A stretch of 63,909 bases of DNA, filler included, from Bigelowiella natans CCMP2755 (taxonomy: Eukaryota > Protista > Cercozoa), in assembly GCA_000320545.1 (NCBI GenBank). It is 8 parts of 8 records of this genome, joined end to end, with 100 filler letters (N's around TTAATTAATTAA, not from the genome) between each part and the next. Parts side by side here need not be neighbours in the genome. Positions count along the whole stretch, not along the records: positions 11,364 to 30,079 come from ADNK01001443.1; 7 more parts are not named here. One strand, written 5' to 3'. The notes beneath the pieces were generated by a model that saw only the letters and a list, made by a program, of their open reading frames with translations, was not told where the DNA came from and did no database searches. Shown piece by piece: positions 5,654 to 49,556 of the stretch. The translations under genes were made by a program, and so were the position numbers. Numbering within the stretch: position 1 is the first letter of the stretch; each line of letters begins with the position of its first letter.

Positions 5654-6219
5654 AGCGCCAAGACGAACACAAGCTCTTCATTTTCGTTCATTGCGCAGCG
5701 ACACGACTTAGCTGCAAACTGCGATTGGGGATAACGTATATTTGCATTCTCCGGCTATCACGCTTGTGCAAAATAGTATTTAGTGTGCGCACATGATATC
5801 TAGCTAGATGTTATTACTATCACTGCATAATGGCTACGTGCGCCTGCGACAAACATGTGGGGCAGAAAGGGCATGCGAGCTGCTGAGTCGGCTATTACCA
5901 TGTACGACACCAGATGATGCATGAAATGAATAACCCGTATTATCACGCTGCTCATATATGCGCTGTTAAAAATGTCAAGATGTATGGATCGTAGTTGGCG
6001 TAGCTGTTAAGTAAGCCTAGTTAGCGGCTGGATGCTTGTTCCAATAAAGAACACAATCTAGCAATGCCCGATGAACTTGTGCCCATCGATTGCTAGGCAC
6101 ATGATAAATAGTCGACGTCGATTGACATACGGAAACGTCAACACGACTATGTTCTCTTAAGATTATTTTGAATTAATTGGTAAGAATGGCAGGGAAATGA
6201 GAATAATCCGGGCTCTCGA

Positions 6220-7410
6220 TCAGAGTTCATCGTGAGCAGGCTCTCGGTTCAGCTCTGTCTCGATCTTCTTCCTTACTTCTTCTGAAAGAAGATCCGTGCC
6301 TGGAAAATTGTTTTGAGGATGTCACAGGAATTCGTGTTCTCGTCAAAGAATTAACACACCCGTTTTGAAGCGCTGGGCCACATGTCCGTCCTTCCCGACG
6401 AGAAAATACTCGAAATTCCATCGAATATCTCCACCAAATTGAAAGAGAGGTCGACACTGGTCGCAGCTTAAATATAAAAAGAAAGGCTGAGCACAAGAAC
6501 GATGAAGTTCGCGAAGCAAATCGTACCTGCGCTGGCAGCGGACAAGCATATATTCTGGATTCTTCGTGCATTCGCCCATGTCCGCCCATTCTGGCAAAAA
6601 AAAAAATATGCCATGAAAATACGCTTCATTCACATCGAAAGTATCTTCGCGACCTGGGCAGTTTGCGTTTTCATCTTGGCACGGGTCAGCACCCATTTTG
6701 TGCTCTCCTTTGAGGAGACGATACAGCTCGTGGGTATTAGGCCCGTTAACATTGATTTTCTGCCGATATTGAACACAAGGGTTGATGTTCTTAGAGTACT
6801 GTCATCTTTTCCAACAGGGGGGGGAGGGGGGGGGGGGTAAGAACCTCGAATATTTCGAATTCAGCTCCCTTCTCGTTGGCAAAGTCCATGATTTCTTTCT
6901 TCCCCCCTGAGGCTCAATATAATCAGATGTGGAAACAAAGACTGAGCAGTAAGCTGCTACCGGGTTCCTGCCCTCCAAACTGGTTGCATGGAAATCCAAG
7001 GATCCTTAAGCCTTGATCATTGTATTCCTTGTGCAGACTGTTCAGCTAAGCGTAGGATGATGCAAAATTCGGCGAAGACATAGATCAACGAAATGCGTTG
7101 GATTAATCGCTCAGGAGACTCGTGGGGTTTGATAAGCAATCGAACAGAGAACAACTGGCAATGGCACCTGCTTGTATCCCATGTCGGTGTACCCGCACTG
7201 AGACGCAAGGTTCGCAATTAGGAGGACGGAGCCTTTATACTTTCTGAATTCCACCATTTTCCCGTCCAGGGTCCTCACGTGCGCATCGTAGATATCTGGG
7301 ATGTGATGGGCGCGTGGCTCAGGTTCTGTGGACTCATGTCGGATCGTCGTCGCGCGTGTTAAGGCTACTGCAAACGCCACGAGGAGGGCGACGGCAGAGT
7401 GGGGTTTCAT
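6220..7410 (-). CDS. ER-luminal Cys-type glutathione peroxidase (GPx7/8-like) with an internal ShKT domain and C-terminal HDEL
   Basis: Signal peptide; [13 protein letters not shown]; [16 protein letters not shown]; [17 protein letters not shown]; [15 protein letters not shown]; last exon ends [11 protein letters not shown] (stop 6220-6222). Confidence 0.9.
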
Positions 7411-11363: not shown

Positions 11364-12632
11364 ACTGCCTTTCTTTCTCTTTAACTTCTCGTAGTGTTCG
11401 TTGAGCTGCCTGATCGTCATCCTGGGTCGTCCTTCTTTCCTGTCTCTGCAGTCTTTAGCGGTGTGTTTCCCTTTACGTGAGCAGTATCCGCAACGTCGGT
11501 TACCTTCCCTGTCCTTGTACCAGTCTCGCTGCGGCTTAATAGCGTTAATGTTTCCTATGCCAGGTACCTTAGGGCTGGTAAACTTGCGGTCCTGCTCCTG
11601 CTCGCGTAGGGATATAGCCTGCACTGCTGCCTCCATCGTGGTGTAGCCTTTCTCCGTAACGTAAGTGGATTCCTTTATCTTTAACTTGAACTCTTCAAAC
11701 CTTGCCTGATCATCACCTGTGTTGTAATTAAAATCATGTAGTTCGTCGATCATATCCTGGAAGCGCGTGGCAAAGTCTCTAACAGGTTCTCTCTCATGCT
11801 GCATCATTGCTCTGTATTTTCTAATAGCCTGGGGTAGGGAGTTAGCATCCTGTTCATTTACAAAAGCCTTCATTATCGCCTCAACGTCTCGTAGCCCACT
11901 AACTGTAGTGTGTATTTTCTCTAGCTGCCTGATCCGGGTCCTGCCTGTCTCGTAAAGGTCCATGGCTTGCTTTATTATAGCTAGCCATTTGAGCTTGTCG
12001 TTTTCGGTGGGGTTAGGGGTAAAGTCGCAGAGTATACTCCTAGCGTTCTTCCACCACCTCCTTGCCTCACCTCTTTTCCCGTTGTATTTCGTTATCATAA
12101 CCGGTGCTGTTTTAACAGACATGAACTGGGTGTTCCGCTGTACCGGCTGCTGCTGCTTGACGGTGCTCTGGGTCGTCCCCCGCGAGGCGCCCAGACCCCC
12201 GTCGTTCCTAAACAAAGCTGCCCACTCTGGAGGTAAGTCTGCTTCGTAATCCATGATGTCCTGCATGATAGCTGCCCAAACATCATGTGTCTGATACTTG
12301 TATTCTATCGATACTTTCAGTTTGGCGTAGTTGCTCGCCCTGGGTCGCAAGGCTCGTAATGCCATTACGACCTTCTTGCTTTCGGCGGCCACGTCCTCGT
12401 CGTCCGCCTCGTAGAAGTTCTCCAGTGCCTCTGCTGCCGCCTCGTAGAAGTTCTCCAGTGCCTCTGCTGCTGCATCTGCTTTCTTAATCCCGGGTGCTGG
12501 TCCCGGCGGTGCCTGTGGAGGTGTTCCTCCTCCTTCCTTAGCGTCCGTATCGCCCTTCCTTTCCTGTTTCTGCTCGTGCCCTTGCACGGCCTGCGAGCCA
12601 AAGTCCTGCTGTTCTTCTAGCTGCTGTGACAT
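11364..12632 (-). CDS. gag: Retrotransposon Gag
   Basis: KYNGK...RRWW, a major-homology-like QHEREPVRDFATRF segment, and zinc knuckle CGYCSRKGKHTAKDC (CX2CX5HX4C). AAAEALENFYE is tandemly duplicated (33 bp). Confidence 0.88.
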
Positions 12633-12643
12633 TGTTAGTCAAA

Positions 12644-12666
12644 TCGTTTCCCGTGTGTGGAAGCCA
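12644..12666 (-). promoter_or_regulatory. Primer-binding site
   Basis: TGGCTTCCACACACGGGAAACGA starts 5 nt inside the 5' LTR. It begins with TGG (complement of tRNA CCA) and resembles the complement of a tRNA-Asp/Glu 3' end. Confidence 0.65.
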
Positions 12667-12671
12667 AAGGT

Positions 12672-12997
12672 TGTTGCGCGTAAGGTGTTCACAGGCCGAG
12701 GCGCTACGTGCACAAGTAGGCAGGGGGGGGGAAAGGCACGTTTGCTTCCTTTTGAAGAGTTGTGTTTATTTTTATTAAAGATTATATTTTTATTAAATCG
12801 TGCACTGCGTAATCATTCGCGAAGCTTTCGCGAATGCCGCCGCACGTGGGGCAGCACACTTCCGGTGTGCTGCCATGAGTCCCGCCGGAACCCACGTGCC
12901 TATGCTGTATTAATATCTACGTTATCTATATTCTATATCCGCGACAACCCCTTTGTTGTCGCACGTGACTTGTGCCCGCGTAGTGGTACGCGCTACA
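12672..12997 (-). repeat. 5' LTR (326 bp)
   Basis: TGTAGCGCGTA...TACGCGCAACA, a 10/11 terminal inverted repeat; matches 48233-48558. Confidence 0.95.
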
Positions 12998-13519
12998 TGC
13001 TGTGCGCATGCTAGCATGCTAGCATGGCACCTTCTGGCCTTTGCTAGCTTGCGAGCAGCGCGGGCTTCGAGATGCAGCATTGGTGCGCGAAGTCTGATTG
13101 AAGTTGTGGCACACGTTGCAAGTCGAGTCGATGCATCCACAGATGCAAGTGCTAGAAGTGCCCTGTCGTTTCGCCGTGCGATGCATGCCATTCTAGCATT
13201 TGTGCATGCCAGCTAGAATGCTAGAATGCTGGAATGCTAGAATGGTGCACAGTTGAAGATGTAGACAGTCTGGCTAGCTGGATTCTTCTGGTGTTGCATG
13301 ACGACGCGTAGCAGCATGCTCCATTTTGCGCGGCTCCGATCGTTGCATTTTGTCTATATCTAGTTTATTGTCACAACGTACGCCATGATCACCGATCAGC
13401 GTTTTCAAATTGTTCGCCAACGTGTCTCGACCAGCACACATGCTATGCCCACACACATGACTTCAATCATGTTTATCAATGCTGCTGAGACACTTCATAT
13501 ATCATGGTGCATACATGAA

Positions 13520-15180
13520 TCACGTTATGTTCATTCCCCTTACACCGGGATCGAACCAGGATAGATAATCGTTGCCTCTTCTTCTCCCTCGTGCACTTCG
13601 TCCCTTGAACCTGTTCGCGCGCTGAGCTCCTGCACGTATAATCTTCTCCCTAACCACCTCGTGGCTGTCCATATAGGGGCCGAAGCGAAGCGATGATGAG
13701 GGATCTGCACCAATCTTCATCCTATCAAGAGACTCGCGCACGCTCTCCTGCAAATCAAAGTGTTGGTATGCAGAAACAATAAAAAACTGATAGCTGCAGG
13801 ATGTACTGTACTAGTTGTGCATAGTTCTGCATGTGCTTTACTATCCTTCTTCATACGCATATTGTTTTACGTTCGCTCTGAGCTTAAATGCTTCTGAATC
13901 CTTAAGGTATCTTGAAACCAAACGGGGGGGAGAGAAGGGGGTGATACAACAGTTCAGAATGGCTGTGTCGACAATTAGTCACGGTTCCACTCTCTCTCCC
14001 TAGAATTTACCCTCCATTTTACTACTTTTCGTTGTGTGTGGAGGGGGGTGGGGAAGGGGGGGGGGTTACAACTAACAATTTTGCTGCGTCGGGATTGTGG
14101 CAAAGGTTGAGCTCCTTTCCCTTCCTTAAAGCAACTGCTTTCTTGTCACAATCGTCTTTTTCAGGCCCAGCATTCTCGTCTTCAGTTTTCTTATCGCCAT
14201 CGATCTCCACACCTCCCCCCTCCTCGTCGTCTTCAAGATCGCGCCAGAACTTTTCGTGAAAGTAAAACGCCTGCCACGTTGTGCAGCAATTGTGTGTGTG
14301 CCATGCATCTTTTAATACGTCATGTAACAATTGACGCGTATGCATAGATACGTTTTATATGTGCTCGTGTATATATGATATGACTGTACGGGTTAGTTCC
14401 GGGGTTTCGGAGAGGAGACCCAACCAAAAGTAGCAGTTGTAGTAGTAGTAGTAGCAGCAGCAGCAGCAGTAGTATCACCTCTTTAATATACGTCATCAAT
14501 TTGAGAATATAGCCACCAGCAGGGCCTCCTCCAGAAGTGGGTAACTTCAAGTGTGAAGGAATTACAAAAAAGAAGCATCATCATCGGCACACATGCCACT
14601 ACGGTGCCAATATACTAACACACAATATTAAAATGCGAATCGGCCGATTTCGATTCTCCACCCTCCCCCCCCCCCCCCCGAAATTCAACTGAACAATTCT
14701 TAGCTTGGAAATACGTGTTCTATATTGTTGTTTTTCTCCTGCGTATCCTCCTCCTCATCCTTCTCCTCACCATCAGCATCATCATCATTATAATGATTAG
14801 TTTGAATCTTAACAACACGCACATTGGCCGGTTTGAGATCGAGCTGCCGGGACTTTGGGGAGATGAGCGGATGGAATATGTTTATGTCGAATACAACTTT
14901 CGGTTCTCCTTCAGTTGGATACCTTAAATAGGCAGAATCCAAGATTATATTCGCACGTAATCAGTCGCATAAAACTCTTCAAGCGAGACGTATTCGTCGA
15001 AAGGCTTTGACAAAAAGTTGTTTTTGGGTGTTCAGGAACGAATTGTAACAGTCAACAGAAGCAGGGAAGGGGAACGTAGCGCCGAGGTATTTTATGTTTG
15101 CTTGTTTGGTATCATGTTTGGTATCAATGCATTTATCGTTTATTAGCGCCATTAAAACTATTTCTCTCCTCCCCCCCTCC

Positions 15181-15227
<47 letters not shown>

Positions 15228-15602
15228 AGCAGAGACATACAAAGCCCGCACACCAAAAACAATACGATGTGTCTTATATGTGGCTGATCAGAAATTTCGA
15301 TTGAGATCTATGTTTATGCGTGCATGTTTGGTGGAGGACATTTCTGGTAGCGAGACGCAGAACTTAAACGCGCCTCCTGTATACCTGAAACAGGTATAAA
15401 CATCAATGATGGGAAATGGGTAGAGTCACCATCTGTCCGCGCTCCTACTTAATGCTTTCGTCGCCGCTCCTTCTTCTACGCGCTGCACTTACTCGCCCTC
15501 ATGGATGAAGAGCACTCCATACCACTGGTGCAATGACTCGAATCCGGGTATCACATAAACACCACTCTCCACGCGACCAATCATCGTTTTGCTGCCAGAT
15601 AT

Positions 15603-15641
<39 letters not shown>

Positions 15642-16139
15642 AATCTATTATGAAAAACAGTGTCAATCATCATATGATTTTACATATAGTACTGGTGCGA
15701 TACTCAGGCCCATTAGCATCGACCCACACTCATTCCTCACATCCCTCCTCATCTTTGACTACAATTTCTTACTATTCCATCAGGATGGCGTATTCCCTCA
15801 GCTTCTTCTGGTAGGCCTTCCCGGGTGTCTTCAAAGGGGGGGAAAGACAGTGATAGGTTCAGGAAATGAGATATGTTGGGAACAAGCAAAAATATAGATT
15901 GGGTTGAATTAAAAGGGTCAGGGAGTAGAAGAGGAATATAGCTGTTTTCCCCCTGCTTTCCGTACAGTGTGTTGCTTCATTCTACTACAGCAGGTGCAGA
16001 CCAAATTGACTTACCAATTTCTCCTCTTGATCTTTTTCCTTTCCACCGTCCGTATTCTCAACACTCTGGATAAGAAAATACAGTTAACGGTCGTTTTTGC
16101 TTCTCGTCTGTCTGGTAAACGAAGAGGTACCTCAAGCAT
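13520..16139 (-). CDS. AKTIP: AKTIP/FTS ubiquitin-conjugating enzyme variant (UEV), multi-exon
   Basis: Exons give KKLREYAILMEY, SGVYVIPGFESLHQWYGVLFIHEG, YTGGAFKFCVSLPE, YPTEGEPKVVFDINIFHPLISPKSRQLDL (HPL motif, no catalytic Cys) and C-terminal SSLRFGPY...VREKI...LSWFDPG, all matching the AKTIP pattern. Confidence 0.85.
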
Positions 16140-16565
16140 ATTTTCGTCCGAGTATTACTGTCAAAAGTGATTCAGCGTTTCTGTAAATTCCGAGGCGGAG
16201 GGATTATCAGGAAGATATCGAGGGGCCAGCACGGCCACGTCGGTTTTGAGTATGGTGGAGTTGGTGGAGGGAGGGAAGGAAGGATTGTTGATTTATTTGT
16301 TTGGAGCACGAAAGGGTTAAGATTTAAGTGGATTATATTTCCGGGTAATATTGTAACAATTCAGGCTATTCAATAATAGCGACTACGTCTATGTCGACGG
16401 AAAGGATTAGTTCCTTTTTCAGCTTCTCCAACATCGATCTAGGCTCTAGGCAGAACACAAGTGATTATACACCTACGACAACACCTTATCTTTGTTTTTT
16501 GAATAAAATATGTGCTCTTTTGATCCTCAGTTTTCGACCGGGCTTGGCCTCGACAGAAGGAGGAT

Positions 16566-17300
16566 ATGGACGGGGGCGGCGACGAGGAAGACGACCTCTA
16601 CGGTGACGTCAATGGGACCCTCCAGGATATGAGGTTACATAAGATGGGACAGGAGCTAGAGAGTGCACAGGAGGAGGTACGGATATGTAGGGAGAATGCT
16701 GAAGTCAAAGCTGCTCAGGTATGATTAAACGACAGATCGTTGATGAAGGCTCGAAAACGCGGGAAAGCAATCACAAATTCACGCACAAATCCAACGGACA
16801 AAACTGACTGTGATAGTTCAATACAGCACATTCACATTTATTCGGTCGATCACTTGATCCATCAGGTGAAGAAGCTACGCCACCGCCTCGCGATTGCATA
16901 CAGGAACATATCCATCTTGTATAAGACAGCGAAGAATGAGATTCAAAGAAAGGATAACACCATCAAAGAACTCAGGAAGGTTGCAGAATCCAGGCCGCAT
17001 CGTACGAGAAAACGATTCTCCGAGGCCAGCAATGAATCCGAGGGAAATAAACGCTATAGACAGACAAGTTCCTATTCGGAGTCGAAAAGTAGATCTAGCA
17101 AAAACACGACGGCAGCAATAACAACAACAACAACAAGAAGCACCACAACCACCATAAAGAGAAACGCACCAATCGTCACGCATGAGCGTCGAAGTGAGCG
17201 AGCTCCCGATTCAATAACTTCGCCGCATAATCGGCAACACCAAGTAGGAAGGCGCACAAATTTTGAAAAAATAGACCGAAGATCTAGGGCTCCAAGATGA
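16566..17300 (+). CDS. Short protein with a FLASH/CASP8AP2-type N-terminal coiled coil, two exons
   Basis: MDGGGDEEDDLYGDV...KAAQ, then an intron (~16719-16865), then VKKLRHRLAIAYRNISILYKTAKNEIQRKDNTI. This matches the DLY and NISxLxKTAxxEIxRKD signature; the tail is R/S-rich. Confidence 0.7.
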
Positions 17301-18170
17301 TGACGTAACGAACGTACTCGCGGGGCTCCGAACGCTTACTAGCAAATGACGACGTATATCTTAGTGTGTACATCACATCATTGTTGCGATAAAGTAAGCG
17401 CATTCATCAGTGAAATGAAGACGAAGTGCTGAAGATAGTTCAATAATCTGTCGATGTATTGGTTGTGTACCTATGTATGAGACGGATGTAATGAATCAGT
17501 TAAATATGTTCAATTGTCATCCTAACATAGCTGTGCAAAGCCGCGACTACAGCGCTTAAACTGTACTCGTTTGTTTCTGCTATGATGTCAAGCATGTAGA
17601 ATGGATCGCACATATGAGACGGATGTAATGAAATGTTTAAATTGTTTCAATGGTCATCCTAATGTAGCACATATGTCTCCATCTAGCTATAGCTGTGCGC
17701 ACAAAGTTGAAACTGTGCGTGTGACATCGATCTGCGTACGCATTACAACTAATCCTCGTTAGCTGTAAATGTAGACAAAACATCACATCATGCACATTTG
17801 ACACTCCATGCGACGTTGCGATGTCTAGCACAAGATGGCCATGTGCATGCTAGCTAGCATGTTATCAAAAAACTTCATTGCATCCGTCTCGCGTTTGCAC
17901 ACGCACGGTCGCAATTGCGGCCCGGACCAAAACAGACATCTAGTCACAATGGAGCAGCTTCAAGGTCACCAATGTGTGAGAAAATTCATCTCAGCGCGCT
18001 GCCATCGTGTTCATGACAAAACTTGTTGTTTCGAGAACTGCAAGCAAGCACGATTCTTAGCAGTTGCAGCATGCTGCATGGCTACATGCATTGCAAGTGC
18101 GCGCTCGCTACATGAGGAAGCACTAGAGCAGCCGGAATGCTAATGAATCGAGGTTTAGATGACCCATGGC

Positions 18171-18931
18171 CTAGTGATTGCGTCTGGACCGTTTGCTCGG
18201 TTCTTTTCTCGAGCTTGAAGACGAGCTCGAGTTTCGCTTTTTGTTTCTTTCCGTTGTCTCTTGAACCTCTTCTTGCCTTTGAAGAATTGTTTCAAGTTGT
18301 CCCAAGGGCTTGTCATTTTCTTTGCTATAGGGATTGCGAGCATGGTAAACTCCTGCATTATTCCATGCGATATGAGAACGTTTGTCAAAATATGAGTTGA
18401 AAGCATCCGACCTCCTGCACGAAGTTCGTCGATTCCATTGTACGTCCATATAGTTGGCACTCCCTTCTCTCTGATGTTCGAGAGGAATAGTAAGACGAAA
18501 GTTTCAGTTTCAAAATGATAGTTCCTCAGATGACTGCTAGAATCAAGTACCTGTTATTCTTTCGTATTGTTTCTGCCTCTTTTAGATTTTTGGCCACCAA
18601 ATTCATGCCTTAGTTCCATATTAGCACACCGCATAAAGTTAGAAACCATCTGGGAAAATTTGTAGCGAGTGTAAGCAGTCCCTACCACCGCATCTTGTGT
18701 GTATAAAATGCCTGACGACGGACGGCTCTGGCCCTTCCTGAGGTAAGAGAAATCGTGCTCAGTGTGAGGATATACTAGAAAGAATCAAGGTTTCACAGGG
18801 GAAAAGGACCTGCGCGTGACTGGATGATCTTTCTTTGTTCTGAAAGGAGGAAGGATTGAAAGGAGGAAGGATTAACAGGTATTTAGATTGAGAAGTGGTT
18901 GAGAAATCATTGTAACTGTCACCTTTCGCTC

Positions 18932-18970
<39 letters not shown>

Positions 18971-20362
18971 CTTTGTCATCTCAGATTCGGTGTCATGTGC
19001 TGATGCCCTGGCAGGAAGACCACCTCGAGAACGTGTATATAATCCGACACGCATGGCTGTCCCTGAATTTTAGACTCTACCCGATATCTGGGAGCCACCT
19101 TCTGATACGTACTTACACAACAAGACGCATCAAAAAGTCTCATTTCCTCAGATCAGTGCTGCGTAATTCGACAAACGATAAGACTCGAGTAATGAGCTAC
19201 CTTGTATCCCACAACACGCCTCTCCCGGATTTCCTTACCCACTTGCCCATTTTGGAGTAAAGCCCGTCCACAACGACATAATTCAAGATTTTTTTCAGCC
19301 GAATCGACAGCATCTTATGCAGCTTTGTCTTCTGATCAGCACTAAGGTCGCTTGCACGGGGAACGCGAAATGTAGCGTAGTCATTGAGGACTCCAAGGTA
19401 TCCGTCGCAGAAATTTCTGAGGAGAAACAATGAGAATGAGTCTAGTAGTGCTTAGGGCAGAGTAAAGATAGCAACAATAGTAAGGACTCCACCCCACTCC
19501 ACCCCACTCCATCCCAACGTTTGTCGCACAGGGTTGACTCTATTCGGGTCTTTCGGTCCGGTCCGACGTTTCTCCAGACAAATTGAGGAGGCGGGGGAAC
19601 AGGGCGCGGTGGAACTATTTTACCAGCAAATCTTCTCAGTATATATCTCAACTACATGCAAATTGGAATCTTTCAGAGCTTCGAAGGTCCGTCATCATTC
19701 AGGATTTGAAAATATCGACTGCTCTTCTTACTTTCTAAATTGTGGGCTGTGTGTACATAGCCAAAGGAATTAGATCAAGCTACACTCTGTTACCTTTTAT
19801 ATTGACACGTCTTTCTTTTCCGCTATAAGTCACCTTCCCCTTGAAGGTAGACTCCAACAAATCGCGCTCAACCGTGATTCTAGACGTCCCATCTTCCATT
19901 TCTTCCGTTTTAGATTTCCCACGTTGATAGTTGAAGGTCACCGTCCCGCGCTCATCAGAACACACCTCACCACAGACACAGCGAGCCTCAATATTCACAT
20001 TAAGTAAACGTTTACCGTCCTGACTAAGGTCGAGCTGTTCGGGATCCACATGCAGCTTCGTGAACGAATGTTCTACCCTCAGCTTCAGTTTGTTAGATGA
20101 GTCGAAGAATATCTCGTAATCTCCCGGGTTAAGACGTTTCATGTCTACCTTGAGCTTCCCTTTTACTACTTCTAAAGTTTGTTTATTGCTGCCCTCTCTC
20201 ATCAGTTTTGCACTTTTCTTTGCGATTGGTTTTAATTGATTTTCGTATTTGTCTTCTAACGTGAGCTGTTTTGTTCGGGTACCAGCTGATGCAAAGACGT
20301 AAATACGGTACTTGTCAATGCATACGTTATCGCATAGAAGGGAGAGATGAGAGAAAGAAAGA

Positions 20363-20412
<50 letters not shown>

Positions 20413-23400
20413 CACAGAAAATACAAATTTTGCAAAAGTAGGGGTTATTGCTAAAACAACTCTGCTCTGTGAAACCTATGTGCATGCTCTCCATACGATA
20501 ATCTCTCTTCTTTTCTCAAAACTGGAAAGCATATACACCAGCGTAGCTTAGATTTTTAAAAATGAGTGTTGTGACCACTGCAATTCCAAGAGATTTTATC
20601 ATCATCAATTTTCCACTTAAAGGGATCTCCCCGTTCCAAATTGATCTCCTTTTCGTGCGAAAAAGGCTCAACCCCATCAAAGTTGGCTTCGACTCTTACA
20701 AGGTATTTGTCATCTTTAAGATCTCCTGGTATTTTCTTTGGTATTTGAAGATTGTACGAGTAGTCTTGCTTCAGGTCGATTTTCTTCCCGTTTATGTACA
20801 CAGTAAGCCTCCCATCGTTCATCTGATCGTCCTGTGAACGTCGACGTTTTCTCCTTCGAACGAGTTCGTGTTTAATGTTGCTGTCCTTGTAAACTACAAA
20901 TTGAATCTTTTTAGGGTCTTCCCCAACCTTAACCTTGTCCGGCGCTTTTATTTCGAGGTATACGGGCTCGTTGTGCGCTTTCACGTTCATGCGGAACTCT
21001 GACTTCTTCTTACCCCACTTCAATTCCACCCTCGCGCGTAACTATGTAATCACAAGAAGAAGAATCAATATGCAATCTCAAGTCAGATTGGTATATCATC
21101 AATAGATTAGTATTGTGAATGTCAGCATTGTTCTCTTGCTGCATTCGCATTGAGTCAACAAGTTACCTTGCCCGTTTTCTCCTTCTTGTCGTCCAAGAAA
21201 TATTCTTCGCCTAGCTCTAGATGGGTTTCTTCAACTATACCAAGCCGTCCATTTTCTCTCTCCAAGGTCTTGGGTGCTTCAAAAATGTTTTTCCACTCGC
21301 CTTTTGATTTAACTTTCATCATGACCGTCACCTTCTCGTCTGGTAACTCCGTGGTAGTGTAACCATATTTATCGCAAAATTTGCCTTGCGCAATAACATC
21401 GTTGATGAAAGTTTCAATATTAGTACTGTCGCTCTTGTCAAGAAGCTTGTACGTGTTCCGAATCGCTTTGATATCGTCTGGGGGGATCCATTTGTCCGGA
21501 ACTCCGGGACTTATCTTAAATCGAAATGATGAGCCTTCTTCCAGGGAAGAGTGAGAAACGGTTGCCTCTATTTCATCCTCCCAATCCTTCGAAAGTTCTC
21601 CGTTCCCTTTATCTTTGGGAGAAATCTTGAGGATTTCGAAGCAAAACCTATATTGATCCTCTCGCGAACGCGAAAGCTTCGAAGTTTTAATCTTTAATCC
21701 GGCGTCCTTTTCAGTCTTTACAGATATGATTTCCGAAAAGATCTGTTTGAAAAGGGATTGAAAGCAAAAAAGTGAGAAGGATGAATTGGTTTTTCCAGCT
21801 AAATTCCTTTCGCAGTTGAAGCCCTTAAAAGGCGAAAGTCAAGTCATGCAAAAGCAGAAAAAGAGGCCAAACACCAAACATTTGACCTCGAAACATTTGA
21901 CCTCGAAATTCATGTCCTTAAAAAAGATACGATTGCCACGTATGTCCTGAACCTCGAATTCAAATCTGCTCCATTCAGGGTTACTTCCTAGACGAGCTTC
22001 GAGGTCGTCGTCGAATTCCACGAGCACTATTTTATAAGGGTCTCCAGGCTCCACTGTGAAATGTGCTTCGTATAGAAGCGGTTTCCAGGGTTTCTCATGT
22101 ACTTCTTTGTCCACGAAAAACTGAGCTGTGTGCGGCCCTGGGTCCAACTCTTTGAGATTCAGAGAATAACCTTTGCTTGGATATGAAAAATTGCGTAAAA
22201 ACTTCTTGTCGTTCCAGAGTTTGAAGTCTACTCTTTTTGAAGCGATTTCTTTGCCGTCTACGCCTATAACCTTTGGCTTTATGCTTGTGAAGACTCCCTT
22301 ATCGCTTCCAATCTTCCACGTTTTTTTCTCTCTGCAACGACGACAACGATCGAACGGTTCCCAAGAAAAAGATTCTGATTTTGGGTCGTCTGCCTTCTCT
22401 ACTTTTTCCAGTTCTGGGTCTACTTTTGTATCGATACCTTCGAACTTAATACCATCAGGCCAGAATTTTTTTTTTTTTAATCTTTGAATAAGTTTTGGAA
22501 CTTTTTCCGGATCTATCTTGGTTTTAATCTTAAAAAAAGGAACAGAGGTCTTTTCTTGCCTTACATCGTATCTTTCAGGTTTCGGCAAGAGAATCACATT
22601 GACATCAACTTGTGACGCCAAATATTGTCGATCTTTTTTGATTAAATGTTCAGATTTCACAACTACATGTGTGATTTCACCCTTCCTTCCCTTGTTAAAA
22701 GAGACGCAGTCGCCTTTTTTGAAATCGCTCACCTTTTTCTTTTCGCTAAGTTTGGTAGCTTTGTTGAAGGAGTATTCCTCCTTATCTGGCCCCAGATTTT
22801 GAAAAGGGAGGGATATCTGCATATCACACCTACTGCTTACCAATTGGATGAAGTCTTTTATTTTGCTTTGAAGGGTACTGCGTGTAGATCTAGGCTTATC
22901 TAAATCTTTTTCTTTTTCGATTTTTCTTCCGGTCTTTGTGTTGGACAACATCTCTGGTATCGTCTGATCCCTGATCTTTCCTAAATTGAGTTTGTTCCGA
23001 TGTGGCCTGAAGTCCTCCCCAGTAAAGAGGATGAACTGAAGTCGATCTTTTTTCAGCGGTTCTACCTGTCTTGGCCAGAAATGGGAAATACTCTTAGCAC
23101 TACAGGGTGCATTAATGAGCCTGCGTCCTTGCCAGTGCCATTCCACAGCCGGAAGGCTCCTGCCGCTAAAATCTTCCACAGTCAAACCTTCTAAAATTTC
23201 CCCACCAGTCCCATTATCTCTGAGCCATTTTTTGACTAGAGCAGGCGAACTCGGAAATTCATCATCTTCAGAGAACTCTTTGCTTTCGAATTCGACATTG
23301 CAGTCCCCTCCAACACCCTTTTCCTTAACGCATATCCATTTCTTCACACGCTTTCTCCCGGTGTTTTCCTTGCGAATCTTAATCTTCACACTCTCGTCGT

Positions 23401-23788
23401 TGACATTGATATATACACTATCCAGATGATTCTCAGGCTGATGATTTTCATGCTCACCCTCACTCTCAGTCTCTTCGTCTTCAATCTTATTTTCCTCGTC
23501 GTCTCTACCAGCATTATTGCCTCGATCGTTTAAGCGCTGTTCATTCTCATCAGAACGAAGTTTATAATACCCTTCAAACGGCCTCAAATCCGGTTCATCT
23601 TTAGCAGTCACATTCAAGCCTTCCGTAACGTAACTAGGATCCATCTCTTTCCCGTTTTTAAATGGAAGATATAGTGCCATACCCAAGATTTGTTTACCGT
23701 CCAATTCAAATTGAAAATACATTTCCCCAGCCGATCGCTCGTGGCAAAGCCAAAGATGGGACTTCTCATTTCTTAAGCTGTTTTATAC

Positions 23789-23826
<38 letters not shown>

Positions 23827-26272
23827 TGATTAGGAATAGCGTCATTGACGAAATGAATGGGTTTTACTACTACCTGTGGGATTTTTTGTTTAGATCGATA
23901 ACTTCAATGTCGAAGTCTTTAAATTTCCATGTTTCTATATCGAAGAAGCAGTTGTTGGGATACTTATCGATATCATCTTCGGGTTTTTCATCGGGCAGGA
24001 ACTTTTTCATATGTTTTTCGTTATTGGCATGCAGATAGTAATGGTATGTGTTCGCAAGCTGCCGACAAAGTTGAGGGATGTAATTCTGCAGGTATTTCTG
24101 GAGATTTGGCTTAATGTCGTAGAGAACTACTCTTGTAAATTCCTTTTCAATCTTTTCCTCTTCGAGTAACTCCTTTGCGAGCTCAGATTCCCAATACTCC
24201 TTGTAGCAAGGGTCTATTATGTCAAATTTTACCGTTTCTTCCTTGCCGGCTTGGCGCTTGATTTGCCCCAGTTCCATTCTTTGGTCATTTTTACTTTGCC
24301 TCAATCTAATGAGATCGTCAGAGCAGCTCACACATGTCACCTGATATATCATGAAGTACAAGTTTGGACCTACTACTCACAATAACTTGAAACCAATCTC
24401 CAAATCCCATGCTATTATATCCGCTTGATTGACCTCGTTGTTGCCTCTAATTCTGGAATCTACAATTCCTCCCCTCGCCACCAAAAAAATCGCATCTTTT
24501 GCCCCTTCTCCGAAGTAGTTCAATCTTCCATCGACAAAGAAAAATGATCGAGTGCCTACAGAAAGATTGTGTTCGATTAGCTCGAAAAAACACGGATTCA
24601 AATTAAAATTTCACTTCACTTATGTCGCTTTTGCTTCTTGCGCCCTTGTCTTTCTGACTATATCTTAGCATCCAGTATAGTCGAAGCTGATCTGCACTCA
24701 TTCCTGCACCGATGTTAATTATGGAAGCAGAGTACATATATCTTCCTTGCGCCTCACTGTAGTGCCTGTGAAAGCGGATTTTAATGCTAGCTTTCTCACT
24801 TTTGCTTTCAAGAGTGGGTCTTATAGCGTTGTCGATCAGTTCCATAAATGCAATGAGAAGTTTCTGAAAATCTAGAACATCATCGTAGCGCGACTGGCGA
24901 TAAATAGATACTCCAGTAGAAACGTTGATTGTTGATTGAGACATTTCATTCTGTATCGCATTGCTTCCACTTTGGTTTCTTACCCATGAACGAGCTTCAG
25001 GGTAGGCTTCAATTTTCTCTCCGTCTCTAAGATGGTCGTAGGTTTCTCGAGTAAGTTCGAGTCCCTTGTATTCCAGGGTTATAAGGGGTCGTGAATCGAG
25101 ATTTACATCCCAATGACCGCCGATCCAATTTCGCATGTCGTCGTAATTCATATAATTGGTCCGACATCTCGAAACCTTGCCATCCTTGATTTTCCCGCAC
25201 CAATTAATGCAGATTTCGTGCGAACGAGCAGTTAATTTGCTATATTGACTGATTTCCTCCCGAGAATCAACCCTTTCCCCATTGTTGAATAAGTCAATAC
25301 GAGCGTACCGTTGATGTAATCGTTGATGTAATCCGAGCCTTCTAGATTTCTTGATCCTAGATTTCTTGATCCATTCAAGCACTTTTTCCTTCATTTTGTT
25401 GAGAGAATCAATCAGAAATTTCTCTTTAATCTTATGTTTATCCTCAAATTGAAATTCAACGGTCACGAGGTTGCTTCCGGTGGTTTCTCGTAGCATGTCG
25501 AACTTGCCTTCTACTTCTTTCCAGTCAATTATGCTGAAATCGTGACACTCATGAACTGCTTTAAAGAAGTGTCTTTTTTGCTTATCATCTAAGAAGTGTC
25601 TTTTTTTATTATTATATTTCTTTCTAATAAATTCTTCAAACTTCTTTAAGTCGTTTTCCATCTTTTCCTTTACTTCATGGATTGGCAATACCTATTCAAA
25701 ACATAGGCAGGTTCGACACTGTTATTAAATACTTTTTCAAAAAGTCACTCCACCACTAGATGAAAAAAAACTTGACTTATTTGGTGAGGTATGTTAACGC
25801 TTACAATGGTGTTAATTTGCTCAAGATGTTCCTCCTTCAGTGTGTTCTGTACCATCCATGCTTTCAGTACCCTCCAGATATAGTAGATTATAATTGAGTC
25901 TTCCATCGTGAAATACTTTATTTCCGATCTCACACGAGGAACCATGAAATATGCAATGGAAGGGGCTAGCTCCCGATAATGAGCGGGACGCTCACTAAAG
26001 AATTTTGGCTGGACGCGTTTGTATTGCAGGACGCACTGAGTCAATTTATCAATATCTATACTTCCTTGTTGTTTCACGATGAATGATGATGCAGGTTCTA
26101 AAATCCTTACAACATCTTCGACGAATTTTTTTTTATTCTCCCCTTCAGGGACCGCCTCACATATTTGCAAAATACATTTTGCTCCATAATGTTTTTCTAG
26201 GAACCGGAATTCTTGAGGCACTTCGGACTTCGACCCGGATGAGTCCGAGGCATGCTTCGATGGGCGGCTCAT
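18171..26272 (-). CDS. SMCHD1: SMCHD1-like protein (UBL, GHKL ATPase, transducer, Ig-like linker, SMC hinge), multi-exon, about 2000 aa
   Basis: AFMELIDNAI; SIINIGAGMSADQL; LNYFGEGAKDAIF; FTRVVLYDIKP...QNYIPQLCRQLANTYHYYLH; EWHWQGRRLI...DRLQFILFTGEDFRPHRNKL; repeated PGxP motifs in the linker; hinge GYLGVLNDYA...LNYVVVD and NLKEAETIRK...PTIWTYNGIDELRAGG. All are in SMCHD1 order. Confidence 0.85.
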
Positions 26273-26437
26273 TAATTAAACTGAAGTTTCGAACCCTTCC
26301 AGCAGAACCAAGCCTGGATTAAATTTTATGAGTCTTGGGGCCGGCGTGAAGCTGTACTCGAACGTGGACTTCCTTAGCCTTTACTAGCCCTGAGAGAGTT
26401 CGCCAACGACCACCCTTTGGGGCATCCACGCAGAGCA

Positions 26438-28220
26438 ATGACTGACGAGAAATTGGTGTTACAAAGTCGAATCCATTGGTCATTTCTGCCGTTTTTACTC
26501 GTCGAGTCTATGTCGTAGGGACAAAACGCCATTGGAATCACTACTATCAGCATTCTAAAGCAGCGACTACGACGTTATGCCTCGATATTTCATTGGGACA
26601 TCTGTCTGCGGCCCCCGTAAGGTGGGTTAGAGAGCACGATGAGGAAGAGAAAGTACGCGCGTGGAATCGTCGCTGTGCAGAGCAAAATAGGCAAACAAGG
26701 CCAGAAACTCGTTCCCTGGTTCGAAAAATTTGATAAATTCCGAGATGAAGCAGCGAAGACGTTTGGTCTTAGGGCGGATAAGGCAAAACTCTTCAAAGAC
26801 AATAGGTTCATAAGAAAGTGAATCTTTAGACGCCGTTCCCACACTTTCCGAACATGTGTATCATCATTCATTCTTTCTCCATTGCTCGCCCATAGCTGAA
26901 TCTTCGATTTCAATTTTAGGACTGCCCCATTAAATGAGGAAGACTGGGAGGAAGTAAATATTGAGAATGATACCTTCATAATCACAGGGGAGAGGGTTAC
27001 AGATTCCAAGGAATACCTTTCTGGCAAGAGACTTGAGATTAAGGATGGTTCGGAAGTAATAAGCATCCCTCTAAACTTGAAATACTCCATCAGTGTAGAT
27101 ATGACTAGAACAGCCTATGGCTGGGATTCATGGTTTAAAGACGAAGCGAAATATTTTGAAGATCCAATCGAAGTCAAGCTAGAGAAGTTAAGGGATCACA
27201 GAAGCTGGATTGAAAATTTCTTTAAACCTCTTGAGAAACACAAAGCAATTCTTACCCTTGAGACCCGGTGCGGTAAACAACTGTATGCTTCCTTGAAGTT
27301 TACTTATAATCGTAATATTCCAGGCCGACGGAATAATATCCCAGCCTTAGAGATTTACGAGCCCCAACCCGGTTTATTTAAAGAAGTAGAACGACGAATT
27401 CGTGAGGAAAGAGATAAGCGATTTTCAAAAGCCTTTGAAAACAGGAAGCTGCGAGTGCTACTTGATTTGGACCATACACTTATATCGACCGGGACATACG
27501 ATCCGAAGACATACGATCCGAAGATTGTAGAGAAATTAAAGCATCAAAAATACATGGAGTGCTATGAAACAGATCCAAAAAATCCAACACGGCTCACCTT
27601 TCTACGACCAGAACTTATTCAGTACATGAAGAAATTAAAGGATATTGCTGAGCTGACTGTTGTCTCTGCTGGAAAGTATACATACGTGGAACGCATTTGC
27701 AAGAAGATAGAAAAAGAATGTGGAATAAAAAAGCTGTTCGAAAAGATCATTTCAGTTTGGTCGACAATTGGGAAAGAATCCGATGTTGGGACAAAAGATA
27801 TACGACGAGTTCTTACATATTTTTCGTTTCCAGGCATGAAGGATTCGGATGTTAATGACTATATGGTAAGAACAATCCTTACAATATCCATATTCTCACT
27901 TCAATTTTAATTTGACGTTATCCCTCTTTACCTCCCTGTGTACACAGACTGCAGGCCTCATAATTTTAGATGATTTGGATGTCTGGACTGGGTCAGACTT
28001 AGTAAAGAATTTCTATAAAATAGATCCATTCCATGTGAGAATTAACCCTTCCAAGTCAGTTGACGTGCAACTGAAGCAAATTCGGATGGATGATAAACTC
28101 CAAGTTATTTATGGAAGAATTAGCAAGTATCATGAGAAATTCTTCGAGGGTATGGGAAAGCAGCCAGTATTGAAATATCTCAAAAAAGGCCCATTAACAT
28201 GGTACAACTTCAAATGTTGA
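26438..28220 (+). CDS. FCP1/SCP-family HAD phosphatase with an N-terminal ubiquitin-like domain, multi-exon
   Basis: LRVLLDLDHTLIS (DxDxT), FLRPELIQYM, ELTVVSAGKYTYVERI, TKDIRRV, LIILDDLDVW. Upstream exons splice in frame; the start ATG at 26438 is tentative. Confidence 0.8.
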
Positions 28221-30179
28221 GTAAGATTCTCCAGTTAGTCGAATAATATAGTAGGTGTGAACTATCTAGATGTGTGCTGCTTATTTAACGTTAGTGCTGA
28301 ATTATAAATTATGAGATTAATGTCGCACATCCAGCTCTAGACACAGCGGCATTCGGTCATCACAGTGATCAAAGCGTGGAACACATGCTGCTTGAACGCA
28401 ACCTCTAGAAATGTCAACACTGTTATTGAAATTCCGAAACACCCCATAGTAGGCTTCAATAAATTACATGTAGTTTTCTTGATCGGTGGCACTATGCACC
28501 GCATTCAGTTCTAGAAATGTTGTCGCTCGTTATTGGCATCAATGCTGGCATGTTAGACGGATGCGATGAAGATGCCATACTTTTTCACTAGTAACCCTAG
28601 CTAATGTAGCTCTAGAGCTATGCAAGAATGTGTCTGATCTAGCTAGCTATGGGTGTGCACGTCGAACGCAACGCTGCGCATACAGGTCGAGCAGATATCA
28701 TCATGCTCGCCAACGCGCATGCAGGCCTTGCATTTACCGCAATGATCTATGTTACGCAAACCATCACTTATTGGCGGTGCAGCTGGCATGTAGCTGCGTC
28801 GTAGGAGTTATGCATGCTTACCTACCTCGCGACGGAGCACCTAGCTGTCGTTCGATCGAACATGATATATAATACGCTGTGCGCGACGCGTTATTGCATG
28901 ATGCGCGCGCGCCACATCACCCGGAGCCACGCCGAGCGGCTACCGCTAGCTAGCATGCGATGCTAATTAAGCAAAGGCACCATGCTAGCATGTATCACTC
29001 TAGCTGCACGTGGGGTTTTCCCCATTTTTTTCTCAAGTTCTATATAAAGCGCTAACAAACGAGTAGTCAAAGAAAGGCAGCGGCATCATTTTGCGCATAC
29101 ATCGATGCTATGACAAATAACTCATGAATCCTTGAGGCGGTCGTATTTTGGTGTTACACATAGCACATAGAGAATGAATCAAAGCAACAACGACGATGCA
29201 ATGCATACACACAACCACGACATAACAATCGAAGCAAAAGCGGCAGCTGCTACAAGTCTAGAAATCAAGACTGCACACGACGATGCTAGCTAGCTATGCT
29301 GCGAGGTAAGACGCCTGCATGTAGCGAACAGGAGCGTTTTTGCATGATCTACCATACTGGCCGAGGTGCTTCGGTGTGTGTGTGTGTGTGCGTGTGTGTT
29401 TACTTTTTTAATTGGCAGATACTGTTTCGACACAGCGAGCGCAGAGGACAATAATACCGCAGAAGAACATGCTCAATTCATTAATAATGATTATAGAAAT
29501 AAAACTTGAATATTAGCACGACGCGGAGGCGTAGTGAAATGCTATAAAATGTGAAATTACGAACAGAGCCAAATCCTTCATTGAATAGCATGTATGAGAA
29601 AAAATGCGACTCGTATCACTTTACATACATATTCTTCACGCTTATGTTGTGAATACAAAATATGTTTTTATATTTAATGTTGAAAACAGGCGCGTTGCAT
29701 TTCTCACATATTTAAACATAGCATTTTAAGGGCTTCATCATTCTCCTAACGAACATAGCTGTCAGATCAGATGCCCCTCTTAAGTATCTTCTCTCGCCCT
29801 CCTGCTTCCCTCCGCACTGTGCCAGCACCAATTTTATCCGCGCCATATCCAAGAATTACATAATAGAGCAGTTAACATTGCAGGCCGGATCCTAGAGTGT
29901 GAGGCGGTGGGGGGGAGGAAGGGGGGGAGGAGGGTATCATAACGATGATGAATGGTAGGATCATCCCTAGAATGTCGTGTTCAGGTTAATAAGAAAGTCA
30001 ACGAAGATAACCCACATACACACACAGTCATTCCATGTGGCAGTGCATTCGCACGACTCCTCCTCCACCCCCCCCCCCCNNNNNNNNNNNNNNNNNNNNN
30101 NNNNNNNNNNNNNNNNNNNNNNNTTAATTAATTAANNNNNNNNNNNNNNNNNNNNNNNNNNNNNNNNNNNNNNNNNNNN

Positions 30180-30213
30180 CCTAAACCCTAACCCTAACCC
30201 TAACCCTAACCCT
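30180..30213 (+). repeat. Telomeric (CCCTAA)n tract at a contig start
   Basis: About five CCCTAA units abut the gap, followed by degenerate units (CCCTCA, CCCTGA, CCCCAA). Confidence 0.8.
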
Positions 30214-31563
30214 GGTCCTGACTTGTGCTGATCCTGGTGCTCACCTCATCCCTCACCCCAACTCTGGTCCAAACTCTTCACCAGAAACGGTGACTCTGAC
30301 CCTCATCCCAGCCCTGACCCAATGCCCTCACCACTTTCCGTGACTTTGGCCCTCACTTTTGCCCTGAGAAAAGCCCTGGTCGATTTTGGCGACCAGTTTT
30401 CCTCACTTTGGCCCTCACTTCGACCGTCACCATGGTCGTCACTTTGGTCGTGGCCCAGGAGAACACCCTGACCCCACATGGCCATGTGAACATTGTCAAA
30501 CTTTGGACATTTGCCTTTTCATTGTCCACCTTTGTGACTGTTTTTTGTCACCCTGGGAATTGTCATTTTGTGTTCACACACACATTCACACAATTGCGTG
30601 TCGCAGGGCAGGCGCAGTGGCGCACAGGCTGGCAGGGCTGGTCAAAGATGACTCTCAGTGGAGAGTTTGAACTCTGATTGCTGCATGATCAAATTTTTGT
30701 CAGAAATCACTGGCACAAGTGTCGCACCAATCCAACGGCCAACCTTGGGGTTCGAGAATGCTTCCAGAACCATCGGGAAGACTGAGGCAGGTGCCAACTG
30801 CGTGACGTGGGTTGGGTTCCGACTGGATTCCGATGTGTCAGGTTCTGTCATTTGTTTGAGGAAGGAAGGCCTGCTTCGAGGTGATCGGCCTCGACAGGAC
30901 AGCCACAGCGAGCGTGCAAAAGAGTTTGGACAGGTTTTTGCTGGTTGTTTGCGTGCTGTGCGTGCCCTTTGCACACTGGCACATCAAGTTGTCCACATGA
31001 TGATTGATGCTCACGGCCGTTGACTGCACTGCGTTGGCAGTGCACAAGAGAAAATGCACACGTGCCTTCTGGTCTGTCTCAACGTCATCGCTGTCCATGC
31101 ATTGTTGAATGATGTCCGCATCACGTGAAAAATGTCACGCATGCCGCCAGCGTCAAGCATCGTGTCACATGTGAAACTGCGTTTTGGGCTGTGTCTGCAG
31201 TTGGCGTTAGGAACACCACACCAGTGATGTGCAAACAAGATTGCAGCATGTTTCGTCATTAACTTCAAAAAATCATCTCTTGCCAATAAGGCTGATGTCA
31301 TCATTATTCACTTGGATGGTGTTGGGCGTAGGCTCACTATCTCAGCAGCTTTCTCAATGTACTTAGCCTTCAACAATCCTGCATGTTGTGTGTCACACAA
31401 AGTAAGGAATAGTGAATTAAATCATTCATCAAAGGTCGTAAAAGGACAATTAGGCGCTTCTGCTGGCCTTTGTTGATAATCGTTATATTTCTCTACAAGC
31501 TCAACATGAATGAGAATCTTCCTCTCCACACATCATAGTTCTTCTATAGTAGCGATAGTCGTT

Positions 31564-48181: not shown

Positions 48182-48232
48182 AGGTCTAAGGGAATAAGGA
48201 AGGAAGGAAGGAGCAACGTGACTTGGGGGAGG

Positions 48233-48558
48233 TGTAGCGCGTACCACTACGCGGGCACAAGTCACGTGCGACAACAAAGGGGTTGTCGCGGATATAGAAT
48301 ATAGATAACGTAGATATTAATACAGCATAGGCACGTGGGTTCCGGCGGGACTCATGGCAGCACACCGGAAGTGTGCTGCCCCACGTGCGGCGGCATTCGC
48401 GAAAGCTTCGCGAATGATTACGCAGTGCACGATTTAATAAAAATATAATCTTTAATAAAAATAAACACAACTCTTCAAAAGGAAGCAAACGTGCCTTTCC
48501 CCCCCCCTGCCTACTTGTGCACGTAGCGCCTCGGCCTGTGAACACCTTACGCGCAACA
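48233..48558 (+). repeat. 3' LTR (326 bp)
   Basis: TGTAGCGCGTA...TACGCGCAACA; reverse complement of 12672-12997. Confidence 0.95.
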
Positions 48559-49556
48559 ACGCTGGCACCCAGGGCACGTCTCCAAAGTGTTGCACGACAC
48601 TTGCAACTTGCGAAAAGCAGTCCAATGGTGCCTCGAACTGGAAACAACGAGGATTCACTGGGGTGGAAAGCATGACAAGCAGCATGACAAAAAATGGCGT
48701 GCATGGCCAATGGCAGCCGTCTGATGAGGGTGGGGAAAAGAACGACGCAGCGCATCCATCCTGAACCAGAAACTTCCCCGAATTTCGATCGCGCGACATC
48801 CATCATCTCCATGGATCTCCATGGATCTCCATCTCATTGAATCTCTGCAACTGTGTCGAAGACGAACTGAATTTCACTTGGTGCGACAAGCCGTAGTGAC
48901 CGTTCGATGCGGTGACTGTCATTGACAAACAGTGCTCCTGGTCCATTTTTGGCGTAGTTGACTGTGGAGCACGCTCGGATGATTGATGAGTTCTTGGGAG
49001 GTACTACACGTAGTCATTACAGGAGTACATGCAGCAGCCATTAGTGCACATGCTGAAAGGAACAATTGGTTCACAGTGTTCTGCAAGTTCACAAAAAATA
49101 AGAGAAAGAACAACAACGTAGAAGCACAACTCTTCACGGAAAGAAGAGCACGTGCGGTACCCACCACTGCACGTATCGGCCAGCGCGACATACGACTGAG
49201 TTGTCCAGTGTCCAAAATAGTTCCATTTGCATGCAATTCTGGCTTGTGTTCGAGCTAGCTTCAACGTGCTATTTTTCCTACTCACTTGCCATCGAAGAAG
49301 TGTTCGGTGAAGAACAAGGACAAAAGCAGGGGAACGCCAAGCTTTTTGAGCTCTTTTAGAGATATCTACAATCAAAAGGAGGCCTATAAGCGCTCAACCT
49401 CGCGTCAAAGTTCCACTGGGAGCAAGTGAAAAGCAGCAGGCAGGCAAGAGGGCGGTCCGAGAGCAAGTGCGTAGGCACGGTGATAAGAAACCAAACCACG
49501 AAACTTCCCCCAAAACCACTCGTTATCCTCCCCCTTTCGCTCTCCCCATTTTCTCA

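Follow-up and report, generated by a model that had tools for sequence, protein, structure and literature searches.

The window analysed here is a 63,909-nucleotide (nt) stretch, filler included, of the cercozoan Bigelowiella natans CCMP2755 (GenBank assembly GCA_000320545.1). It consists of several contigs joined by N-spacers, and the subject of this report is a pair of divergent, spliced genes on the piece at 11364-30079. In the databases the two genes are labelled as B. natans JGI models 75047 (minus strand) and 75048 (plus strand). The minus-strand gene encodes a large ATPase that almost certainly belongs to the SMCHD1/GMI1 family, and the plus-strand gene encodes an FCP1/CPL-type phosphatase whose N-terminus is predicted to be a ubiquitin-like (UBL) domain. 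The genes, their exons and the spacer between them are as follows (aa, amino acids):

18155..26272, minus strand: SMCHD1/GMI1-type gene, 14 exons, 2,109 or 2,117 aa; JGI 75047 is protein P0007, 2,116 aa
26272-25805, 25691-24620, 24555-24434, 24340-23874 and 23777-21902, minus strand: ATPase exons 1-5, with introns 1-4 from RNA contigs
21742-21167, 21041-20576, 20285-19794, 19614-19530 and 19416-19201, minus strand: ATPase exons 6-10, with introns 5-9 from the transcript-derived protein P0002
19087 (or 19111)-19024, 18737-18686, 18608-18551 and 18470-18155, minus strand: ATPase exons 11-14, inferred from splice models
26639..28220, plus strand: UBL-X-FCP1/CPL-type phosphatase gene, exons 26639-26805, 26920-27865 and 27948-28220, 461 aa; JGI 75048 is protein P0001
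26273..26638, no strand: head-to-head spacer of 366 nt, with both 5' untranslated regions and a likely shared promoter region

Transcript evidence comes from contigs of three runs (X15, X17 and X19) aligned to 23830-29350. The runs are presumed to be RNA, as GT-AG introns are absent from their contigs. All three runs agree in five GT-AG joints and a single loose end (three joints and the loose end in ATPase introns, two joints in the phosphatase), and both genes are thus transcribed and spliced, which bears out the first-pass annotation of two divergent genes at this position. Introns 5-13 of the ATPase gene lie beyond the stretch covered by the aligned contigs. The ATPase start codon that had been proposed at 26272 agrees with the JGI model, as does the stop at 18155-18157. 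The plus-strand start proposed at 26438 has to be given up: its frame runs into a stop (26516-26518) after 26 codons, it lies outside the phosphatase contigs in all three runs, and both the JGI protein and the transcript-derived proteins begin at 26639. Consequently, the two ATGs are 366 nt apart instead of the ~165 bp first given, and the pair is tightly divergent even so. In the three runs ATPase contigs end at 26398-26458 and phosphatase contigs start at 26570-26601, which are weak hints only of where transcription starts. The gap between opposing contig ends is 111-201 nt; sharing of a promoter region is plausible at this distance, and such a region is likely common to both genes. Lysine and glutamate together make up 20-21% of both proteins, and dinucleotide repeats occur at 0.30 per kb over the pair versus 0.46-1.76 in five other stretches, in agreement with an earlier description of the genes as K/E-rich and low in microsatellites. 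Rfam has no match within 11364-30079.

The minus-strand protein can be divided into the following parts, where P0011 (2,003 aa) is the one orthologue found, 28% identical to the B. natans ATPase:

25227..26272, minus strand: N-terminal extension of ~300 aa preceding the UBL-like segment, in no family; that of P0011 is shorter and ~20% identical
24996..25226, minus strand: likely ubiquitin-like domain, aa 312-388, just before the GHKL domain
24005..24860, minus strand: GHKL ATPase domain, aa 434-666, by match to 6MW7
24714..24716, minus strand: codon of Asn482 (motif II), aligned to Asp184 of human SMCHD1 in the alignments to 6MW7
22913..23158, minus strand: part of the transducer (S5-like) domain, by Pfam SMCHD1_S5
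18410..19416, minus strand: likely SMC-hinge domain over five exons, by splice model against P0011

The sole PDB match of P0002 is the ATPase module of human SMCHD1, 6MW7 (E 3.2e-13, and 6.9e-17 with a profile). The Pfam family SMCHD1_S5 matches the exon frame at E 7.3e-6 and 26.3 bits, just below its cut-off of 27, and matches P0011 above the cut-off (E 1.1e-9); a Pfam search with full-length P0002 and P0007 gave no SMCHD1_S5 match. Together, 6MW7 and SMCHD1_S5 uphold the original call of an SMCHD1-like ATPase. Ahead of the GHKL domain, a 77-aa segment is conserved at 37% identity to P0011 in the position of SMCHD1's UBL. Judged by its place and conservation it is likely a UBL, and the PDB alignments to 6MW7 begin after it. 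By eye, we take this segment to resemble the UBL of SMCHD1. The middle region of the protein is 29-32% identical to P0011, and aa 1040-1160 presumably are BAH-like, again by eye. The domain order described for SMCHD1 includes BAH and Ig-like domains in its middle region (10.64898/2026.02.05.704097).

The C-terminal end of the gene had to be remodelled. To infer introns 10-13, we scored each of 96 open splice models against P0011, and the best hinge model is 41% identical to the C-terminal domain of that orthologue (E 2e-35). JGI 75047 omits or misreads three small hinge exons (18471-19200); against P0011 its version scores 70 bits versus 107-111 bits for the corrected model, and these exons are likely mis-predicted in it. 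The hinge has no match in Pfam, nor in the PDB (0 at E 10). The C-terminal domain of P0011 matches SMC_hinge clusters of the Atlas at 0.92 (25/30 matches, with only 133/256 features in common). We consider a C-terminal SMC hinge likely to be present.

Several transcript-derived sequences stop short within this part of the gene. P0002, P0006 and P0010 end at the midpoint of the hinge, just within the intron after donor 19200; P0008 ends within the intron after donor 19793. Judged by their length, the X17 and X19 RNA contigs finish exactly at donor 19200 and that from X15 at donor 19793. These stops suggest frequent intron retention, and perhaps a half-hinge isoform or noisy splicing (PMC6142364). 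At 21876-21908, a 15-nt tandem duplication leaves ATPase exon 5 with a choice of two donors at its end.

In overall design the protein follows human SMCHD1 and Arabidopsis GMI1. It has the SMCHD1-type GHKL and transducer domains, a long middle region, a length of ~2,000-2,100 aa, a likely C-terminal hinge and a likely UBL ahead of the ATPase. It differs from both by ~300 more residues before the UBL, by an acidic insertion in the transducer region and by a hinge so diverged that searches of Pfam and the PDB miss it. SMCHD1 acts in silencing and GMI1 in double-strand-break repair (PMC5651269 for GMI1). Since SMCHD1-type proteins are known as an ancient eukaryotic lineage (PMC2292703), finding one more is routine. 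Literature searches, which here and below left supplements and most subscription papers outside, found none pairing SMCHD1 with Bigelowiella and none on SMCHD1 with the last eukaryotic common ancestor and SMC complexes.

The ATP pocket is where the protein departs from its human relative. The pocket of human SMCHD1 comprises Glu147, Asn151, Asp184, Thr320 and Lys525, of which Asp184 binds the adenine N6 and sets ATP specificity (PMC6620310). The catalytic Glu, the Mg-binding Asn and the motif IV Thr are also present in the B. natans protein (E440 and N444 in motif I, T623 in motif IV), as is the motif III glycine loop FGEG at 528-531, and all are the same in P0011. Lys 972, inside the transducer match, may by eye be the switch lysine. 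In contrast, the motif II Asp (DxGxG) that contacts adenine N6 is replaced by Asn in both P0007 (Asn482) and P0011 (Asn368), and the RNA contigs show no alternative letter at the Asn482 codon. In yeast Hsp90, the D79N mutation lowers ATP binding strongly and abolishes ATPase activity (PMC2132952). By analogy with Hsp90 D79N, the B. natans protein, with Asn in place of the adenine-binding Asp, likely binds ATP weakly or with altered specificity. That the lineage of B. natans and P0011 has lost normal ATP binding is possible, although we lean somewhat against it. Mouse SMCHD1 reportedly cannot do without ATP hydrolysis (10.64898/2026.02.05.704097), and dimerisation of the SMCHD1 UBL is reported to depend on ATP (PMC8286825). 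A full-length SMCHD1 with this Asp-to-Asn change would be a natural test of what SMCHD1 does outside the normal ATP cycle.

The plus-strand protein has three parts:

26660..26998, plus strand: predicted beta-grasp (ubiquitin-like) domain, aa 8-82, interrupted by intron 1, by AlphaFold2
27020..27367, plus strand: middle domain, conserved but of no recognised fold, aa 90-205, 18-31% identical to P0012-P0014; predicted local distance difference test (pLDDT) below 40
27443..28154, plus strand: FCP1/SCP (NIF) HAD phosphatase domain with DLDHT at aa 238-242 and DD at aa 379-380; no BRCT

Its catalytic domain is recognised without difficulty. Pfam NIF matches P0001 at E 1.6e-8 and lies above the cut-off in P0001 and in its relatives P0012-P0014, one of which (P0013) ends ahead of the DD motif. 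Fcp1 comes first in both the sequence and the fold searches of the PDB, with SCP1 close behind, and aa 216-439 align to plant CPL4 at 28%, last helix included. The NIF domain and the first rank of Fcp1 confirm that an FCP1-like phosphatase had been correctly called. Like Fcp1 and CPL4, the protein has an NIF/FCPH HAD domain with DLDxT and DD motifs. It keeps the DxDxT and DD motifs, and activity as a Mg-dependent Ser/Thr phosphatase is predicted for it. Unlike Fcp1, it lacks a BRCT domain and has the N-terminal UBL and the middle domain of unknown fold instead. BRCT gave no Pfam match in P0001 or P0012-P0014, whereas P0017 and P0018 have one, and the spliced transcript leaves only ~20 aa beyond the phosphatase domain.

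The N-terminal ~80 residues are predicted to form a beta-grasp. Folded from the single sequence, the phosphatase had a mean pLDDT of 34.6; with five rows, AlphaFold2 was confident only for aa 8-82 and for some of the catalytic domain, with a pLDDT of ~80 for aa 11-80. VIA-align matched the N-terminus to CIDE-N, PB1, ubiquitin and other beta-grasp domains with Z of 6.7-7.8, in the middling range of the tool, and a root-mean-square deviation mostly of 2.4-4 over ~70 residues; its rows agree on the fold. Foldseek matched the BAG6 Ubl (TMt 0.64). For the N-terminal half, the Atlas structure rows were mostly ubiquitin-like clusters, all under the bar, and the Atlas feature search gave no usable match. 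The predicted fold agrees with the beta-grasp N-terminus that had been proposed, rather than with another fold. In the 115-aa middle domain, aromatic residues are conserved in all four family branches, and a weak Ig_GP210_15th match (E 2e-4, below cut-off) occurs in P0014 only.

A HMMER scan of 1.84 billion representatives returned eight matches for the phosphatase: itself, the three relatives P0012-P0014 with the same layout (30-35% identity), two CPL4-like proteins and two BRCT-bearing FCP1 proteins. In a tree of 17 rows, drawn without SCP, TIM50 and UBLCP1 references and with long branches, the UBL-X-phosphatases form one clade (support 99/97) outside FCP1-BRCT and CPL4. The UBL-X-FCP1 layout constitutes a small family, for which our searches found no name. 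At 27493-27524, a 15-nt tandem duplication lengthens the phosphatase by five residues; P0003, a variant with 95% identity, lacks it.

Beyond naming the two proteins, the first-pass annotation had proposed that they share a UBL type, that they form a co-regulated and possibly duplicated or mobile silencing module, and that this module is a candidate partner of a mutational marking. When the two UBLs were compared by hhalign, they aligned with a probability of 0.65%, E 0.088, 12% identity over 42 columns and a score of 12.9, while the best of 51 sliding ATPase windows used as a control scored 12.9, 12.6 and 12.6. Profile comparison of the whole proteins gave a probability of 0.2%, and a hidden Markov model of the phosphatase UBL had no match in either ATPase (B. 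natans or P0011). These UBL profile alignments are shallow, and remote homology is possible. The profile check of the N-termini was negative, and the two UBLs have at most a common fold between them, with no likeness beyond chance. Since the beta-grasp is very common, a shared fold carries little weight.

Signs of a mobile element or a duplication were sought around the pair. There are no terminal inverted repeats (the inverted flank score was equalled by 102/300 shuffles), and the 25 longest of 75 inverted pairs include only microsatellite pairs. No transposase family was found in the 15 frames scanned, and no second copy at >=88% in any of the three RNA runs. Viral contigs contain no relatives of the ATPase (0/228 stretches) and only distant NIF domains (8/279 stretches, 24-32%), which fall outside the phosphatase family in the tree. 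The relatives lie on contigs of transcript size, and metagenome scans for linkage gave 0/166 and 0/517 stretches. In 30 comparisons of the flanks as mutated terminal repeats, made by transition-tolerant alignment, only the left-right direct comparison stood out (z 3.5; 20/500 with a stricter shuffle).

The supposed marking concerns two patches of intergenic DNA that bracket the pair:

17330..18150, no strand: CC/GG-poor patch, ATPase gene 3' end, CC observed/expected 0.37-0.41, in convergent intergenic DNA
28250..29350, no strand: CC/GG-poor patch, phosphatase gene 3' end, CC observed/expected 0.50-0.53

Both flanks are rich in the four-base palindromes CTAG, CATG, TGCA and AGCT. Similar patches are found at 5654-6229, 12998-13522, 51486-52000 and 58355-58640, all of them gene 3' ends. 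Across the six 3' stretches, with the two flanks taken as 17301-18154 and 28221-29350, CC/GG observed/expected is 0.41-0.79 and the palindromes are 2.4-4.4 fold; across six 5'-side stretches, the spacer of the pair included, the values are 0.76-1.16 and 0.4-1.8 fold, with the orientation of neighbouring genes in this classing read from long frames. A rank test of 3' versus 5' stretches gave p ~0.005, four of the six 3' stretches having been chosen after the scan. The CC-poor 3' stretches are mostly without CG depletion. Such a composition is likely general to the 3' intergenic DNA of this genome. Since any divergent pair is flanked by gene 3' ends on either side, the bracket is explained with no role for these proteins in marking, and the proposed tie to marking finds no support, the same signature being present at four other gene 3' ends. 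The signature itself could be a footprint of CC-context methylation or deamination at terminators; the literature on methylation in B. natans yielded nothing useful.

We think it probable that the locus is an ordinary divergent gene pair encoding two variant proteins, an SMCHD1 and a phosphatase of the type acting on the carboxy-terminal domain (CTD) of RNA polymerase II (Pol II), which likely work separately, and that their adjacency likely reflects ordinary gene packing and not a silencing module. The two genes would share a promoter region but not a mobile silencing function. By what is known of its family, the SMCHD1-type protein would form a long, hinge-joined dimer that grips chromatin for silencing or repair. 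Its N-terminal gate, weak or altered in ATP binding, might by the Hsp90 D79N analogy make it a clamp or scaffold more than a cycling ATPase. In the phosphatase, the UBL and the middle domain probably replace the BRCT as the docking part, and the Pol II CTD would be the likeliest substrate class. Each protein has diverged relatives of the same layout (28% for the ATPase, 30-35% for the phosphatase), and both thus represent old, maintained families and not a fresh cassette. Several observations weigh against this reading. The contig ends are close enough to make co-transcription plausible, both proteins come from nuclear, transcription-linked families, and separate work is a default rather than a result. 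The flanks do have a weak direct repeat (~120 nt, 83/118 identical, equalled by 20/500 shuffles), and the two flanking patches are among the longest, with 6/11 of the flagged 400-nt windows. As to the gate, every other catalytic position is kept in both orthologues, which argues for some nucleotide use, and weak ATP binding is deduced from a small sample of two sequences.

Three other accounts bear on the same facts. The phosphatase could be UBLCP1-like, with a UBL that docks on the proteasome or another ubiquitin receptor and no tie to Pol II or to its neighbour. UBLCP1 has a proteasome role, and its order (3SHQ) is the same, an N-terminal ubiquitin-like domain and then a CTD-phosphatase-type domain; Foldseek matches 3shq across both parts at E 6.6e-4. 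On the other hand, the B. natans catalytic domain is nearer Fcp1/CPL4 in every search, UBLCP1 stands at Foldseek rank 25, below Fcp1 and SCP1, and is not among the 17 PDB profile matches, and the 115-aa middle domain is an addition. This account, which is compatible with that of an ordinary pair and differs in substrate only, seems to us rather unlikely, and the fusion of a UBL to a CTD-type phosphatase is likely independent of UBLCP1, a second origin of that design. Still somewhat less likely is a two-gene module with a bidirectional promoter, in which the phosphatase is recruited, perhaps via its UBL, to SMCHD1-bound chromatin and there dephosphorylates Pol II or a chromatin factor. The tight divergent layout, a likely beta-grasp domain in both proteins and the reported need for the SMCHD1 UBL in dimerisation and chromatin localisation (PMC8286825) would fit it, but UBL-UBL homology is no better than in the control windows and beta-grasp domains are commonplace. 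In its strongest form, with the pair co-transcribed, an ATP-blind SMCHD1 clamp would be governed by its neighbour instead of by an ATP cycle of its own: the phosphatase would dock by its UBL on the N-terminal gate and, at the loci bound, remove phosphates from the Pol II CTD. We consider this very improbable. The module idea would matter much more if true, and its support amounts to adjacency.

The pair might also have arrived as cargo within a large mobile element, or stem from recent duplication, with ends that a repeat-marking system has mutated. The CC-poor patches on both sides with their weak shared direct repeat, and an LTR (long terminal repeat) retrotransposon 5 kb from the pair, could be read in this way. 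Inverted repeats and a transposase are missing, however, the genes are intron-rich and expressed with orthologues at 28-35%, like patches lie at four other gene 3' ends, and the NIF domains of viral contigs are distant and outside the family, which makes this a very unlikely origin. With no inverted repeats, transposase, second expressed copy or specific UBL homology, the co-regulated, duplicated or mobile silencing module of the first-pass annotation is left without support. What is new is modest: an unnamed UBL-X-phosphatase family with three distant relatives, and Asn in place of Asp184 in an SMCHD1 and in P0011.

Other features of the window lie outside the pair. The LTR retrotransposon is split over two contigs, its gag-like end at 11364-12997 and its pol end at 45527-48560. 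Because its terminal copies of 328 nt are identical, it is a young element, and it is not visibly mutated. At 13520-16400 lies a multi-exon gene on the minus strand, which had no Pfam match on four single frames. By eye, it resembles a ubiquitin-conjugating-enzyme variant (AKTIP/FTS-like). Neighbouring frames matched no Pfam families but retrotransposon and zinc-finger ones, with weak matches under the cut-off besides. At 30180-31300, a contig starts with telomere-type AACCCT repeats, which are followed by ~1 kb that is nearly without TA (observed/expected 0.05) and poor in CG.

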